Source of the DNA: an uncultured Bacillales bacterium
GTDB taxonomy: Bacteria; Bacillota_I; Bacilli_A; Acholeplasmatales; Anaeroplasmataceae
DNA: 64,000 nt
Direction: 5' to 3'
NCBI GenBank assembly: GCA_946407635.1
Contig: CAMJOZ010000001.1
Span: 2,763 to 66,762 of the forward strand
Below, piece after piece: positions 9,394 to 14,579 of this stretch; the first letter of the stretch is position 1; each line of letters starts with the position of its first letter. A program made the translations under genes and the position numbers. The notes under the pieces were generated by a model. That model saw nothing but the letters and a program-made list of their open reading frames with translations. It did no database searches and was not told where the DNA came from.

Positions 9394-9468
9394 ACAATAT
9401 TTTCCTCCTAATTTTTGATATTTCAATTATTTTATCACTTGATTAAATGTATTTCAACATAAATTTTA

Positions 9469-9840
9469 TTATTTTTTTTGATTACAAATATTAAACATAT
9501 TTGATGATTTAAATTTATTCGAAATATTAGATTTTATTTCATCTAAATCTTTATTGATACTATCATTTATTTTTCTTTCTAAATCAAAATATTCCTTCAC
9601 TTCTTCATGAGAATAAAGCTTTGCTTTAGCATTAATAAAATCTTTTTTTATTTGATAAAAATCTTTATAATAATCTTTATTTTTTGAAGCATCTAAATAT
9701 TTAGATTCTAGTGTTTTAAAACTAACAATTTCTTTTTTATAATCATTATTAATTTTATTTTTTAAATCAATTAATCTTTTAAAATCATCACTTGATTCAA
9801 TTTCATCAATATAAAGATCTATTAATTCATTAAAATCCAT
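9469..9840 (-). CDS. YlbF/YmcA (RicA/RicF)-like helical protein
   Basis: Start moved to the ATG at 9840 (MDFNELIDLYIDEIESSDDFKRL...). The heptad-rich helical pattern is typical of the Com_YlbF family. A RicT homolog is also in the window. Confidence 0.5.
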   Translation of the reverse strand: MDFNELIDLYIDEIESSDDFKRLIDLKNKINNDYKKEIVSFKTLESKYLDASKNKDYYKDFYQIKKDFINAKAKLYSHEEVKEYFDLERKINDSINKDLDEIKSNISNKFKSSNMFNICNQKK

Positions 9841-9938
9841 TAATATCACCAGAAACAATTTTATCATAAACCTCAAAAATATAAAAGTTTTTAGCATTTA
9901 TAATATTATTATGATATAATTCAAACGGAAGTGATATT

Positions 9939-10553
9939 ATGAAGTATTTTGAAAAAGATATAGTTAAAGAAGGTTGCCCAATTTTAAGAGAAAAATGTAC
10001 AAAAGTAAACCTTCCATTATCAAGTGATGATTTGGCTTGTATAAGAGGATTATATGAATATGTACTCGCATCTGCGATAGATGAATTAGTTAAGCAATTT
10101 GGAATAAGACCTGGTGTTGGTATAGCCGCTCCACAGGTTGGTGTTACTAAAAGAATGTTTGCAATGAACGCTGATGATTTTTTAGACGAAAAAGGAACTA
10201 AATATAATTATGCAGTAATAAATCCACAAATTATTGAGAAAAGTGAGCAATTAACATATTTACCTGGTGGTGAAGGATGCTTATCAGTTGATAGACCAAC
10301 ACCAGATTTAGTAACTCCAAGACATTATAGAATTAAAGTTAAATTTGCATCATTTGATTACAATACAAATAAAATCAAAAATGTAACAATGACTTTAGAA
10401 GGTTATCCTGCAATAGTATTCCAACATGAATATGATCATTTAGATGGAATAATGTATGTTGATAAAATGTATAAAGTTAAAGATTTAGATGAAAATATTC
10501 TTCCTCTTTATACAACTGAAGATGATGAAGAAACTATAGATGAAGAAAAATAA
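9939..10553 (+). CDS. def: Peptide deformylase
   Basis: 204 aa with all three signature motifs: GIAAPQVG, EGCLS and HEYDHL. Confidence 0.95.
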   Translation: MKYFEKDIVKEGCPILREKCTKVNLPLSSDDLACIRGLYEYVLASAIDELVKQFGIRPGVGIAAPQVGVTKRMFAMNADDFLDEKGTKYNYAVINPQIIEKSEQLTYLPGGEGCLSVDRPTPDLVTPRHYRIKVKFASFDYNTNKIKNVTMTLEGYPAIVFQHEYDHLDGIMYVDKMYKVKDLDENILPLYTTEDDEETIDEEK

Positions 10554-10580
10554 CAGCCAACAAGCTGTTATTTTATTTTT
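10552..10580 (+). terminator. Rho-independent terminator after def (may act on both strands)
   Basis: Stem aacagc/gctgtt (10552-10557 / 10564-10569) followed by ttttattttt. Confidence 0.65.
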
Positions 10581-11229
10581 CTACTAGATCCTCTATATTA
10601 CAATTTAATGCTTTAGATAGCATATAAATTGTTTCTAAGCTAGCCTTATTAATATCTTTATTTCTTTGTTCATACATTTGAATAGATCTTAAGGATACAT
10701 TTGATTTAATTGATAATTCTTTTTGTGATAAACCATTCATTATTCTAAATCTTTTTAAGTTAGTTTCTGGATATTTATTAATTATTAAATCATTAACAAT
10801 TTCTACAAATTTTGAAATATCTGCCTCATGTAATGTATAATACATTTTTTCTAAATCATCAAATGATAATACATCAAATATTTCTTTAAATTTTCTACTT
10901 GTATACCATTGATAATATGAAATAGCATAACCAATCCAATACTCAATTGTTCTTTCAAATTTGCTGATTGGTTCAAATCCTATTTCATATTTTTTTATTT
11001 CATAAATAATATCATATACTATTTCGTAGCCACTTCTACCTAAAACCATAAATATATTACCATTTTCAAGGTTTTTAGATACACTACTAGCTAAGAACAA
11101 ATTAATAAAATCATTCTTATTAATACCACAATCATTTATTGCAAAATCAAATGCTAAGCCTATTCTTTTTTGAATACTATTAAGATATATTTCTTGGTAT
11201 GCGTGGGTCATCATTTTTGATACCTCCAT
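10573..11229 (-). CDS. DUF3791-like domain fused to a C-terminal XRE-family helix-turn-helix (putative antitoxin/regulator)
   Basis: 218 aa. The C-terminus LKRFRIMNGLSQKELSIKSNVSLRSIQMYEQRNKDINKASLETIYMLSKALNCNIEDL is a classic Cro/C1 HTH. The N-terminal ~150 aa resembles DUF3791 by recall. It overlaps the upstream gene; alternative Met starts at 11214 and 11211 still overlap it. Confidence 0.6.
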   Translation of the reverse strand: MEVSKMMTHAYQEIYLNSIQKRIGLAFDFAINDCGINKNDFINLFLASSVSKNLENGNIFMVLGRSGYEIVYDIIYEIKKYEIGFEPISKFERTIEYWIGYAISYYQWYTSRKFKEIFDVLSFDDLEKMYYTLHEADISKFVEIVNDLIINKYPETNLKRFRIMNGLSQKELSIKSNVSLRSIQMYEQRNKDINKASLETIYMLSKALNCNIEDLVEK

Positions 11230-11869
11230 TCATAATATCTCTAATATATAAATCACTTGAATCTTCTTCTAATATTTTTAAATACAATTGATTTGCTTCA
11301 ACATTTCTATTAACTCTTTTTATATAGTATTCATCTTTATTAGCTTCTTCATATCCATCAAATTTTAATAATGAAAAAGCATATTTAGATTTAATTACAA
11401 TTTGTTCACCAAGCTTACCTAATTTCATACTTCTTGCAAGCTGATTAATAGATATACTATTATTAATAAAGCTTTCCGCAAAATCAAAATATGAATCATC
11501 TGCTCTATAACCAATAATTAAATCATATTGATTTAAATTAATACTAAAATTATCTATTAAATATTGTCTTGCTTTTTTAGCATTTGGAGTATTTATAGAA
11601 AATAATCTATGCTCAAGTAAAATAGCAATCCAATTTAAAATTGTATATTTTTCACTATTAAGATTTAATATATTCAAATATTCAGTATCAATTTTATAGC
11701 AATTACAAAAGCCATCCTTTAAAGAATTAACAGCCCATTCCTTTGCTAATTCTTTGCTCTCTGTACAGTAAAACCCTAATCCAAAATCATTATTTTTTCT
11801 TCCTTCACCAAAAATAGGTTTTTCTATAATATTGTTAGAGCCATGATATATAGTTATAATTTTTGACAT
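11180..11869 (-). CDS. DUF3990-like protein (possible H-Y-E type ADP-ribosyltransferase fold; putative toxin/effector)
   Basis: 229 aa. The N-terminus ITIYHGSNNIIEKPIFGEGRKNNDFGLGFYCTESKELAKEWA matches the DUF3990 signature as I recall it. It is the first gene of a two-gene operon with its own promoter. Confidence 0.55.
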   Translation of the reverse strand: MSKIITIYHGSNNIIEKPIFGEGRKNNDFGLGFYCTESKELAKEWAVNSLKDGFCNCYKIDTEYLNILNLNSEKYTILNWIAILLEHRLFSINTPNAKKARQYLIDNFSINLNQYDLIIGYRADDSYFDFAESFINNSISINQLARSMKLGKLGEQIVIKSKYAFSLLKFDGYEEANKDEYYIKRVNRNVEANQLYLKILEEDSSDLYIRDIMNGGIKNDDPRIPRNIS

Positions 11870-11891
11870 GTAATCATCACCTTCTAGCTAT

Positions 11892-11920
11892 ATTATATCA
11901 CTATGGTGATACAGTTTCAA
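11892..11920 (-). promoter_or_regulatory. Sigma-A type promoter of the DUF3990 operon with an embedded palindromic operator
   Basis: The minus strand reads TTGAAA-17 nt-TATAAT with a TG extension. The spacer contains the perfect 16-bp palindrome TATCACCATAGTGATA (11896-11911). Confidence 0.65.
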
Positions 11921-11930
11921 ATGTGCAAAT

Positions 11931-11960
11931 AAAAAACACCTCAAATTTGAGGTGTTTTTT
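11931..11960 (-). terminator. Bidirectional rho-independent terminator
   Basis: aaaaaacacctcaaatttgaggtgtttttt. The perfect 18-bp palindrome at 11937-11954 is flanked by A and T runs. Confidence 0.8.
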
Positions 11961-11962
11961 AA

Positions 11963-12382
11963 CTAATTATTATAAATATATTCTGATGGTTTATTCTTAT
12001 TATTCTCGTCTGTTACACCATAAATTAATAGTAAAATACCAATAATTAAAGAACCTAAGAATAATGCTAAAGCACCAATAACAATATATGGTACATTTAC
12101 TTTTGGATTAACAAATACTACAACTAAAGCTGCAACATTAATACCAAAAGGTAAAATACATAATACTCCAGCTACATTAAATAATATTTTAAATAGCTTT
12201 TGAGCAAGCTCAATTTCTTCTGTATCAGTTGGACGTAAAAATCTACCATTATAAGTAACTGACATACCTTCTTTAACCATTTCCTCAACGTCAATAACAT
12301 TTCCAACAACGAAGAACAAAATCATACCAATTAAAGCTAAAATAATACCAATTATTGATAAAATTTTTATTGCTAATTTCAT
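11963..12382 (-). CDS. Small integral membrane protein (4 predicted helices)
   Basis: 139 aa and hydrophobic (MKLAIKILSIIGIILALIGMILFFVVG...). SD AAGGAGGAAA lies upstream. Confidence 0.5.
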   Translation of the reverse strand: MKLAIKILSIIGIILALIGMILFFVVGNVIDVEEMVKEGMSVTYNGRFLRPTDTEEIELAQKLFKILFNVAGVLCILPFGINVAALVVVFVNPKVNVPYIVIGALALFLGSLIIGILLLIYGVTDENNKNKPSEYIYNN

Positions 12383-12463
12383 AATTAATTTCCTCCTTAA
12401 CCAAAAACATTATAAAATATCTAATCATTTAATTCAATAAATATAGATATGTAAATGTTTTAT

Positions 12464-13165
12464 TTAATCTTTTAAAACATACATAATAATACCACCAGCA
12501 ACACTAACATTTAATGATTCAGTATTGTTAAGTGGTATATAAATATTTTTCTTTACTAATTCTTTTACTTTTTGACTCACGCCATTGCCTTCATTACCTA
12601 AAATGATAGCAATTTTATTTTTTTCTTTTATTTCATTTACATCAATACCATTAACTACATCAGTACCATAAATATCATAATCTTTTAAATTTGATATAAA
12701 TTCAACTAAATTAGCATGAATAAAAGATAATTTAAAAATAGCTCCTTGACTTGATCTTATAACCTTATCATTATAAATATCACAACAGCCTTCACCTAAA
12801 ACTATTGTTTCAAAACCAAAAGCTTTTGCGCTTCTCATCAAAGCTCCTAAATTACCTGGATCTTGTACAGCATCTAATATTAATATTTTATTAGATAATT
12901 TATTGTTTTCTAATATTTTACATAAACCTACTTCTGTTGGGATTGTGTCTGTATTAGAAATTTTTTTCATTATCTCTTTAGTTACTTTAATATAACCATC
13001 AATATCATTTACTGAATAAGCTTCAACAAGTAAATTAAGGTTTTTAGCTTCCTTTACTAGGTGTGCTCCTTCTACTATAAATAAACCTTCTTTTTTTCTA
13101 TACTTCGATTGATTTAATTTTAATAATAATTTAATTTTTGGATTATCTAATGATGTAATTTCCAT
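12464..13165 (-). CDS. TrmH/SpoU-family RNA 2'-O-methyltransferase
   Basis: 233 aa. Contains LDAVQDPGNLGALMRSAKAFG, ILGNEGNGVS and SLNVSVAGGIIMY, the SPOUT motifs. Confidence 0.85.
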   Translation of the reverse strand: MEITSLDNPKIKLLLKLNQSKYRKKEGLFIVEGAHLVKEAKNLNLLVEAYSVNDIDGYIKVTKEIMKKISNTDTIPTEVGLCKILENNKLSNKILILDAVQDPGNLGALMRSAKAFGFETIVLGEGCCDIYNDKVIRSSQGAIFKLSFIHANLVEFISNLKDYDIYGTDVVNGIDVNEIKEKNKIAIILGNEGNGVSQKVKELVKKNIYIPLNNTESLNVSVAGGIIMYVLKD

Positions 13166-13169
13166 AATA

Positions 13170-14579
13170 TTATCCTATAGATTCAGTCATTTCTAGCTTA
13201 ATTAATCTATTAAGCTCTACAGCGTATTCCATTGGTAATTCCTTTGAAAAAGGCTCAATAAATCCCATAACAATCATTTCAGTCGCTTCAGCCTCTGTTA
13301 AGCCTCTACTCATCAAATAAAATAATTGTTCTTCATTTACTTTTGAAACTGTAGCCTCATGTTCAATATACATATCACTATTCTTACCAATATTTGTAGG
13401 AATAGTATCAGATGTTGATTTATCATCTAATATTAATGTATCACATTCAACATGGCTTCTAGCTCCCTTAGCACTCTTTTCACAAGAAACGATACCACGA
13501 TAATTAACTTTACCACCACTACGACAAATACTTTTTGAAATGATTCTTGAAGTTGAATCTTCACCTATATGAATCATCTTCGCACCAGCATCTTGAAGTT
13601 GTCCTTCTGATGCGAATGCGATAGATACTGTTGTACCTCTAGATTTTTTACCTTTTAAAATACATGCAGGATATTTCATATTTAATCCAGAACCAACATT
13701 ACCATCTATCCATTCCATGTGACCTTCATCATCAACTAAAGTTCTTTTTGTAACTAAATTAACAATATTGTTAGACCAGTTTTGAATAGTTGAATATCTA
13801 CAGTGTGCTCTTTTACCAACAAATATTTCAACTACAGCAGCGTGAAGTGAATCTTTTGAATATAAAGGAGCTGTACATCCTTCAACATAATGGATATCAG
13901 CATCATCATCTACAATAATTAGAGTTCTTTCAAATTGGCCCATTCTTTCTGTATTAATTCTAAAATATGATTGAACAGGCTTATCAAGCTTTACTCCCTT
14001 TGGAACATAAATAAATGAACCACCACTCCATACACAGCTATTTAAAGCAGCGTATTTATTATCATCAGATTTTACTAATGTTCCAAAATATTTTTTAAAG
14101 ATTTCAGGATGTTCTCTTAATCCTGTATCTGTATCACAGAAAATAACACCTTGATCTTCTAGTTCCTTTAAATTGTTGTGATAAACAACCTCTGATTCAA
14201 ATTGGCTTGATGAACCAGCTAAATATTTTCTTTCAGCCTCAGGAATACCTAGTTTATCAAAAGTTTCTCTTATTTCTTCTGGAACATCTTCCCATTTATT
14301 CTCAGTCTTATCACTTGATTTAATATAATATGTATAATCATTAAAATTAATAAAGCTTAAATCAGGTCCCCATTTAGGGTTATCTATCTTTAAGAAATTT
14401 TTGTATGCTTCAAGTCTATATTCAAGCATCCATTCTGGTTCATTTTTAGCTTTAGAAATAAATCTAATAACATCCTCATTTAAACCTTTACCAGATGATA
14501 ATACAGTTTTAGCATCAGTATGAAAGCCATATTTATAATCACCGACTATATCGTTAGCTAAATCTTTACTATTTTTCAC
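13170..14579 (-). CDS. sufB: Fe-S cluster assembly protein SufB
   Basis: 469 aa. Contains the SufB blocks YSTIQNWS..., [15 protein letters not shown] and [20 protein letters not shown], in suf operon context. Confidence 0.95.

Follow-up and report, generated by a model that had tools for sequence, protein, structure and literature searches.

Between def and spoU in the genome of an uncultured Bacillales bacterium of the family Anaeroplasmataceae lie two overlapping genes, and the locus raises the question of whether they form a toxin–antitoxin (TA) or defence module or encode an enzyme together with its own regulator. The pair was examined in a stretch of 64,000 nucleotides (GenBank assembly GCA_946407635.1, contig CAMJOZ010000001.1, positions 2,763 to 66,762), referred to below as the window, in whose coordinates all features are given. 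We consider the chances somewhat better than even that the pair forms a TA-like module of type II, toxin gene first, with an autorepressing partner, maybe an abortive-infection or addiction cassette. The grounds for this reading are the DUF3990 identity of the first gene product, its ADP-ribosyltransferase (ART)-like fold and conserved residues, the precedent of Rhs toxin tips, obligate pairing, a promoter operator, mobility, the match to the candidate system PDC-M42, and the insertion of the cassette. The four rival explanations considered below are all ranked lower.

The cassette and its DUF3990 protein

Two overlapping open reading frames (ORFs) were identified on the minus strand: gene 1 at 11180–11869 (229 amino acids) and gene 2, in its longest form, at 10573–11229 (218 amino acids). 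Since nearly all homologues of gene 2 are 212–215 amino acids long and a GGAGG motif (11227–11223) falls within the first five codons of the longest ORF, inside gene 1, the true start of gene 2 is most likely the ATG at 11214 or 11211, giving an overlap with gene 1 of 35 or 32 nucleotides (nt). The putative antitoxin/autorepressor is accordingly given here as a 213-amino-acid protein encoded at 10573–11214 (minus strand), with 11229 and 11211 as alternative starts; the assignment draws on the ORF, homologue lengths, an AlphaFold2 model and the pairing described below. The overlap of up to 50 nt proposed in a first-pass annotation of this DNA stands as an upper bound, the likely extent being about 35 nt (11180–11214). 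It is out of frame, carries the Shine-Dalgarno GGAGG of gene 2 within gene 1, and is consistent with translational coupling of gene 2 to gene 1. The length of the overlap in related loci is invariably 2 modulo 3, with 35 nt at 46 loci, 20 nt at 18 loci and 38 nt at 10 loci.

The cassette has its own sigma-70-type promoter on the minus strand (11892–11920), in which TTGAAA (11920–11915) and a TG-extended TATAAT (11897–11892) are separated by a 17-nt spacer and 11 of 12 positions were matched in the promoter scan. The Shine-Dalgarno sequence of gene 1, AGGTGA (11882–11877), is located just beyond it. Upstream, a palindromic hairpin flanked by T and A runs (11930–11961) and containing a perfect 19-nt palindrome is the terminator of the DUF4064 gene ahead of the cassette and insulates the latter; downstream, a bidirectional hairpin terminator (10547–10574) is common to the convergent def and gene 2. 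These two terminator-like sites compare with 0.5 expected by chance in the terminator scan. The promoter and flanking terminators noted in the first-pass annotation were thus recovered, and the cassette is confirmed as a real two-gene unit, beyond chance.

Gene 1 (11180–11869, minus strand) matched the Pfam family DUF3990 (PF13151) over the whole profile (positions 1–152 of 152; E-value 8.5e-46; 155.8 bits against a cutoff of 32.2). The family is listed in the ADP-ribosyl (ART) clan of Pfam, of which RES and DarT are also members (PMC7955679), so that both the family name and the clan grouping given in the first-pass annotation were supported. Over its N-terminal 100 residues, including the His and Tyr motifs, gene 1 also displayed a match to ART-PolyVal (E-value 1.5e-3), below the gathering threshold. 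The AlphaFold2 model, built with 39 homologues, reached a pLDDT of 86.8 and a pTM of 0.82. About 45 of its 50 best Foldseek matches in the PDB are ART-fold proteins, each non-significant; they include PARP1/2/3/4/10/12/13/16, tankyrases, diphtheria toxin and pertussis-like toxins. Against BFVD, a collection of predicted viral structures, five matches at E ≤ 1e-3 were obtained, among them ART-PolyVal-annotated proteins (2.3e-4 and 2.4e-4) and a polyvalent protein (5.3e-5). By sequence, neither gene 1 nor a profile of 60 family members retrieved anything meaningful from the PDB. The fold expected earlier is in line with the viral models and with the composition of the PDB list, though not supported by a significant PDB match, and gene 1 is predicted to encode an enzyme with an ART-like fold.

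Relatives of gene 1 are numerous, with more than 8000 database matches, and 2473 clusters at 50% identity. Residues from about 170 to 229 of the window protein form a C-terminal helical extension that is missing from short-form relatives of about 160 amino acids. Some long-form relatives carry extra N- or C-terminal regions of 150–560 residues: P0258 (393 amino acids), P0316 (381), P0288 (791) and P0334 (533).

Residue conservation was counted over 197 long- and short-form members of the DUF3990 family. The conserved positions are [YF]8-H9-G10-[ST]11, D28-x-G-x-G-F-Y34-x-T36, W45, W80, R88, D116, G120, A123-D-D125 and Q156; in the alignment of 60 sequences, G10, Y34, D116, G120 and Q156 are invariant. 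H9, present in 184 of 189 non-gap sequences, ends the predicted strand 4–11 (I-Y-H9-G-S), and Y34 (190 of 197) is located on the predicted strand 33–36 (G-F-Y34-C-T). W45 (165 of 197) belongs to the predicted helix 39–46, D116 occurs in 194 of 197 members, and Q156 (177 of 187 non-gap sequences) is the first residue of a predicted late strand, 156–159. The first-pass annotation had recognised elements of an H-Y-E type enzyme. Its His (IYHGS) and Tyr (GFYCT) are nearly invariant; the third residue, E155, is present in gene 1 but is shared by no more than 61 of the 197 family members, and a strict H-Y-E triad using E155 was rejected as a family feature. Judged by these alignments, the family signature is H-Y-Q plus a near-invariant Asp, and the likely catalytic residues of gene 1 are H9, Y34, D116 and Q156. 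We take this signature to fit the clade that Aravind and colleagues describe as 'H-Y-[E/D/Q]', although it departs from the canonical triad.

The loss of the canonical Glu across the family, together with the weakness of the matches to solved ARTs, could also mean that the DUF3990 fold is a catalytically dead relic used as a scaffold or binding protein, and that the pair is a selfish but inert passenger. This explanation appears very improbable to us, since H9, Y34, D116, G120 and Q156 are strongly conserved over several phyla and gene 1 is better conserved than its partner: mean identity to the window is 63% for gene 1 and 45% for the N-terminal domain of gene 2. Such a pattern argues for an active site under purifying selection.

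The helical partner and its candidate operator

The AlphaFold2 model of the gene 2 product, for which 4509 homologues were found, is all helical (pLDDT 86.9). Its C-terminal part of about 60 residues is a Cro/C1-type helix–turn–helix (HTH) domain (10585–10758, minus strand; recognition helix VSLRSIQMYEQ), as the first-pass annotation had seen. It was detected by Pfam HTH_3 (E-value 3.5e-8, residues 158–215) and HTH_26 (5.4e-6), with a weak match to the HTH of the MqsA family (0.016). The structures retrieved by Foldseek were 434 Cro, P22 c2, SinR, C.AhdI and CapH, with target TM-scores of about 0.8 and root-mean-square deviations of 1.1–1.8 Å.

The N-terminal domain (10780–11214, minus strand; about 145 amino acids), assigned to the PDC-M42B type by PADLOC and alignment, is presumed to bind the toxin or to act as a sensor. 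The first-pass annotation had called it DUF3791-like, a label that had to be abandoned. No Pfam match was found for the window protein at E ≤ 10 or for 36 diverse N-terminal domains at E ≤ 1, and hhalign comparisons with DUF3791 (PF12668), made with single sequences and small alignments, gave probabilities of 0.3–2%. Hidden Markov models (HMMs) built from DUF3791 reached only the 144-amino-acid phage homologues of the domain, with marginal E-values in a tiny database. With Pfam negative and the sole link, by jackhmmer and HMM searches, weak and transitive, the assignment to DUF3791 was rejected. A '...Y..LH...' motif common to the homologues of this domain and to DUF3791 is suggestive of kinship, no more. 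Neither fold comparison nor sequence profile search retrieved a PDB relative of the domain.

Four residues of the N-terminal domain, W93, G95, H129 and E130 (numbering of the 213-amino-acid form), are invariant among orthologues that are only about 30% identical, and the His is retained in stand-alone homologues and in the 'LH' motif of DUF3791. This conservation would fit an enzymatic antidote with a logic like that of DarTG, in which the helical domain catalytically removes the modification made by gene 1. However, the domain is small, resembles neither macrodomain nor ARH hydrolases, and matched no enzyme by fold or by sequence; moreover, E130 is replaced by D or T in the stand-alone homologues. 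We regard catalysis by the partner as unlikely.

Homologues of the N-terminal domain that lack the HTH are encoded directly after DUF3990 genes on the Treponema plasmid pTS1 (hhalign probability 93.7%, E-value 1.9e-7) and on phage contigs of IMG/VR (96.4%, 1.4e-9). In a complete chromosome of a metagenome-assembled genome (CP091718.1; locus L053, 10653–11295), gene 2 is apparently frameshifted between the N-terminal domain and the HTH; the cause could be an error of sequencing or else a natural division of the gene that yields an HTH-less partner.

A candidate operator was identified within the cassette promoter. The 16-bp perfect palindrome TATCACTATGGTGATA (11896–11911), of the form TATCAC-N4-GTGATA, occupies the spacer between the -35 and -10 boxes and overlaps the latter by 2 nt; it occurs once in the window. 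In orthologous loci of different phyla this palindrome recurs at an equivalent position with respect to TTGACA/TATAAT boxes. Among 1.18 Mb of related loci the strict motif was encountered 70 times, in 69 cases no more than 150 nt upstream of gene 1, and 64 of the 76 distinct upstream regions contain a perfect palindrome of the TA-6/4/6 type, where the background rate is 0.017 per 150 nt. Among divergent clades, the half-site and the recognition helix of the HTH change in concert: TATCAC accompanies VSLRSIQMYEQRNK, TATCAT accompanies V[SD]IR[NS]IQMYEQRHN, TACTTC accompanies VNLRTLQQYE, and TACTCC accompanies [IV]P[IV]RTIQQYEQRQK. Because the operator is conserved in the promoter and co-varies with the recognition helix, the gene 2 product very probably binds TATCAC-N4-GTGATA and represses its own promoter. 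The autoregulation suggested in the first-pass annotation thereby gains comparative evidence; the operator and its co-variation with the helix are newly described here.

In many orthologous loci a second copy of TATCAC-N4-GTGATA is located about 40–60 bp, often some 55 bp, upstream of the promoter-embedded one (loci L006, L015, L018, L021, L033, L045, L053, L054, L060 and L089), an arrangement suggestive of looping or of cooperative binding. Only one copy is present in the window, because the terminator of the DUF4064 gene abuts the promoter.

The layout of gene 2, a sensor-like domain joined to an HTH and an operator located within the promoter of the pair, is also that of a one-component regulator. 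Gene 1 could then encode a modifying or detoxifying enzyme without toxicity, such as an Arr-like ADP-ribosyltransferase acting on small molecules, and gene 2 a repressor whose helical domain, on binding its ligand, derepresses the operon. The location of many copies among housekeeping genes and the unconserved catalytic Glu of the gene 1 family are compatible with such a role. Less easily accommodated are the HTH-less homologues encoded directly after DUF3990 on pTS1 and on phage contigs, and the short-form enzymes paired with tiny DUF3791 proteins that possess no DNA-binding domain. The tight gene overlap and the co-divergence of the two proteins indicate a protein–protein partnership, and the occurrence of DUF3990 as an Rhs toxin tip and of the pair on plasmids and prophages also speaks against this explanation. 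We consider it improbable, if the least so of the four rivals.

Distribution, related systems and the favoured mechanism

Wherever the sequence continues far enough downstream (86 related loci), gene 1 is directly succeeded, with an overlap, by gene 2, and the identities of the two proteins to those of the window co-vary (r = 0.93). The pair thus has the organisation of type II TA systems: small adjacent genes, one promoter, flanking terminators, and occurrence always together (86 of 86 loci).

Relatives of gene 1 were detected in at least 586 species from the gut, in several phyla, in a scan that included one genome per species. Carriers belong to the Lachnospiraceae, Oscillospiraceae, Peptococcaceae, Negativicutes, Erysipelotrichaceae and Anaeroplasmataceae; further carriers are Coriobacteriia, Bifidobacteriaceae, Treponema, Sphaerochaeta, Verrucomicrobia, Lentisphaerae, Kiritimatiellae, Oxalobacter and Parasutterella. 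DUF3990 pairs are present in hundreds of gut species of Bacillota, Actinomycetota, Spirochaetota, Verrucomicrobiota-related phyla and Pseudomonadota, and carriers of DUF3990 also include temperate phages and plasmids of Bacteroides and Clostridium. The pair was found at the ends of prophages, next to genes for a serine integrase and an S24 repressor, elsewhere adjoining a phage terminase, and on 14 IMG/VR contigs. The cassette is horizontally mobile.

Presence on viral contigs next to integrase, S24 repressor or terminase genes, and a fold whose nearest relatives are the ART-PolyVal domains of phage polyvalent proteins, raise the possibility of a phage-side function, the pair being a prophage moron for host takeover, anti-defence or superinfection control. 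Most copies, that of the window included, are nevertheless located outside recognisable prophages, and short-form relatives reside on non-phage plasmids. In addition, 69 of the 70 operator sites are at the promoter of the pair itself, so other phage genes are not under its control. We therefore give this explanation little weight.

The genomic surroundings of the pair vary. Some loci adjoin HEPN-Toprim, NB-ARC/kinase, ToxN/AbiQ, HEPN, restriction enzyme or MADS genes; in the window and in Collinsella the surroundings are plain housekeeping genes. For 38 species loci, the closest two ORFs on either flank were taken as neighbours (146 proteins). PDC-S01/AAA_14-DUF4143 proteins were present in 5–6 loci, and type I restriction enzymes, type IV restriction enzymes, MADS, PbeA, AriA and AbiLi in 2–3 loci each, all of these being raw counts. 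The remaining neighbours are largely metabolic, transport and housekeeping genes. For the enrichment in defence islands that the first-pass annotation proposed to check, these raw counts give a mixed picture, with defence genes near some copies but not near most; on this basis the association with defence genes appears real but moderate.

With regard to previously described systems, the window proteins are recognised by PADLOC models of PDC-M42: gene 1 by PDC-M42A (E-value 2.3e-39, profile positions 3–204 of 215) and the N-terminal domain of gene 2 by PDC-M42B (2.8e-13, positions 2–135 of 138). PDC-M42 is one of 145 explicitly untested phage-defence candidates obtained by 'guilt-by-embedding' (Payne et al., 2024, bioRxiv 10.1101/2024.01.29.577857). 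It has the same order of a long-form DUF3990 gene followed by a helical partner, but the PDC-M42B profile stops before the HTH, whereas the partner in the window adds a Cro/C1 HTH. The pair is thus already catalogued as a defence candidate; we regard it as an uncharacterised ART-fold TA or defence family, represented here by an HTH-fused version. Our literature search on DUF3990, DUF3791 and PDC-M42 returned no functional study, in agreement with the statement of the first-pass annotation that the pair has no described function.

A third architecture was encountered on small plasmids. In these trios a short-form enzyme of about 160 amino acids is preceded by a 75-amino-acid DUF3791 gene and followed by another small gene, with 4-nt overlaps at each junction. 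They are present on C. botulinum pCLI, in C. tetani, in a Clostridiaceae isolate and in Bacteroides/Phocaeicola, including B. fragilis pBF9343, and adjoin rep, parA or a zeta toxin gene. The third gene, annotated as 'hypothetical' and without a Pfam match, was recovered as DUF3791-like by iterative search (L094, 3488–3712; L096, 2988–3218; L099, 2992–3222; L097, 2989–3264), so that in the plasmid cassettes the enzyme gene is flanked upstream and downstream by partner-like genes. The trios share with the window the enzyme motifs LYHGS, DFGxGFYxT, QAxKWA, D...G..ADD and Q, the overlapping small helical partners and, more generally, a mobile location; they differ in the short enzyme without a C-terminal helical extension, the upstream position of the DUF3791 partner and the absence of an HTH. 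On pBF9343 (L093, 3508–4621) the DUF3791–DUF3990 cassette is followed by a small gene overlapping a gene of the zeta-toxin family, which places two putative TA modules in tandem.

Among established TA systems, MqsRA and HigBA share with the predicted roles in the window a toxin gene in first position and an antitoxin with a C-terminal Xre/Cro HTH. In MqsA the toxin is bound by the N-terminal domain, and the Xre/Cro HTH at the C-terminus recognises a palindromic site in the protein's own promoter. The toxins of these systems are, however, RelE-like RNases unrelated to the ART fold, and the N-terminal domain of MqsA is zinc-binding. DarTG, ParST and RES-Xre resemble the pair in combining a small ART-clan enzyme with a cognate partner, provided that gene 1 does encode a toxin. 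The antitoxins of RES-Xre and ParST carry an Xre HTH, N-terminal to a DUF2384 domain; in RES-Xre, gene order and HTH position are the reverse of those in the window (toxin first, HTH C-terminal). The signature of DarT is H-Y-E, as opposed to the H-Y-Q(+D) of the gene 1 family. Searches of Pfam, PADLOC and NCBIfam gave no match to DarT (DUF4433), DarG or a macrodomain, the partner being all-helical, and neither RES nor DUF2384 was matched in the pair. Membership in DarTG, RES-Xre, ParST or MqsRA was rejected on the basis of these profile searches.

ART-PolyVal domains are the closest fold relatives of gene 1 (BFVD E-values of 5e-5 to 2e-4, with a weak Pfam match), but they are parts of giant injected polyproteins rather than stand-alone enzymes with a dedicated repressor partner. 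DUF3990 is further known as the C-terminal domain, in toxin position, of Rhs effectors of the type VI secretion system, with a putative immunity gene downstream (PMC4524185, PMC10763514, PMC12165300). Rhs5 of S. marcescens and RhsA of E. bugandensis thus share with the window the Pfam domain in toxin position and a downstream putative immunity gene. In these effectors, unlike in the window, DUF3990 is delivered between cells within a large Rhs protein, and the tip is regarded as toxic by its position, toxicity itself not being demonstrated there.

Taken by analogy, the best-supported model of the TA-like module is an architecture as in MqsRA/HigBA with a toxin of the DarT/ParT/RES-like class. 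The gene 1 enzyme would use NAD+ to modify an essential target of the cell or phage, either a protein or a nucleic acid. Translation of gene 2 would begin at its start codon within the last part of gene 1, and the helical N-terminal domain of the gene 2 product would bind and neutralise the enzyme. The HTH, as a dimer, would bind TATCAC-N4-GTGATA between -35 and -10 and repress the operon. Loss or titration of the partner, upon plasmid or prophage loss or infection, would free the enzyme. We infer toxicity, neutralisation by binding, the NAD+ chemistry, the trigger and phage defence from the features described above. Carriage by prophages and plasmids and occasional neighbours from defence islands fit an addiction or abortive-infection role.

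Several observations weigh against the TA-like reading. Matches of the gene 1 model in the PDB are poor (best E-value 0.18 with a TM-score of about 0.3, none at E ≤ 1e-3), the canonical catalytic Glu is not conserved in the family, and a site of the Gln type may mean different chemistry or weak activity. The literature search yielded no DUF3990 protein for which toxicity, binding or NAD+ use has been experimentally reported. Four RNA-labelled sequencing runs produced a single low-depth contig of 217 nt over gene 2, with the library type uncertain. Many copies, the one in the window among them, reside among housekeeping genes without mobility genes, and recognisable defence genes were present among the four nearest ORFs in only about one-third of the sampled loci. 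Finally, the G+C content of the cassette (23%) is near that of the host (28%), which indicates that the cassette is not a recent arrival.

A broader proposal can be advanced only tentatively. According to it, DUF3990 enzymes would be a very widespread, uncharacterised group of toxins having the ART fold and an H-Y-Q(+Asp) site, held in check by a new helical 'LH-motif' partner distantly tied to DUF3791. They would serve as abortive-infection or addiction modules of gut anaerobes, carried by prophages, plasmids and chromosomes in the three architectures of trio, pair and HTH-fused pair, and their target or chemistry (e.g. nucleic-acid ADP-ribosylation or NAD+ depletion) would be unlike that of DarT, ParT and RES. 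Should gene 1 encode an active ART-type toxin, the family would represent a large new branch of ADP-ribosylation-based conflict systems, beside DarTG, ParST, RES-Xre and CmdTAC, and its unusual Gln/Asp active site could mean a new chemistry or a new target. The question is made testable by the likely catalytic residues, the gene 2 start and the 16-bp operator with its natural specificity variants TATCAC, TATCAT, TACTTC and TACTCC; architectures that naturally lack the HTH or form trios can be used for comparison. A further possible use of the operator and repressor sets is as orthogonal regulatory parts.

The site between def and spoU

The position of the cassette between def and a housekeeping block had been taken for an insertion in the first-pass annotation. 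A metagenome scan with the window Def protein supports this view. In related contigs with a Def 60–79% identical to that of the window, spoU-sufB follows def within about 70 nt (L171, L174, L178, L180, L183, L184 and L187). About 1.9 kb, containing the DUF4064 membrane gene and the pair, separates def from spoU in the window as well as in L001, L002, L160 and L170, which are closely related to it. The gap of about 70 nt in the related contigs identifies this 1.9-kb segment as an insertion. The DUF4064 gene was considered as a further member of the module and rejected, as it joins the pair in this lineage only.

The inserted block diverges much faster than its flanks, as judged by comparison of L170 with the window (9400–13300). 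Identity at the protein level is 95% for Def and 93% for SpoU, but only 75% for gene 1, 72% for gene 2 and 70% for the DUF4064 protein. A cassette swap by horizontal gene transfer in this sister lineage was rejected: gene 1 of L170 is still closest to that of the window, so the cassette has merely diverged faster than the flanks. No convincing direct repeats or other insertion scars were found around the cassette. In an exact-protein look-up aimed at empty sites, Def and DUF4064 proteins had no records, and every match with NifU was either a carrier or a contig of insufficient length.

Within this lineage the content of the def–spoU site (10553–12464 in the window) varies. Several relatives have an empty site, with about 70 nt between the genes, and further ones hold other cargo: a pair of genes for 218- and 125-amino-acid proteins of unassigned function (L176), a MacB-like ABC transporter (L185), a cation-diffusion facilitator (L190), and an IS200-type Y1 transposase with a membrane protein (L160). 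Public sequencing runs containing this DNA are from sheep, goat and bovine gut metagenomes. Rfam and tRNA scans of the window revealed nothing relevant near the cassette and no tRNA genes; the only Rfam match in the window is the ribosomal protein L10 leader RF00557 (59031–59150, minus strand; 82 bits).

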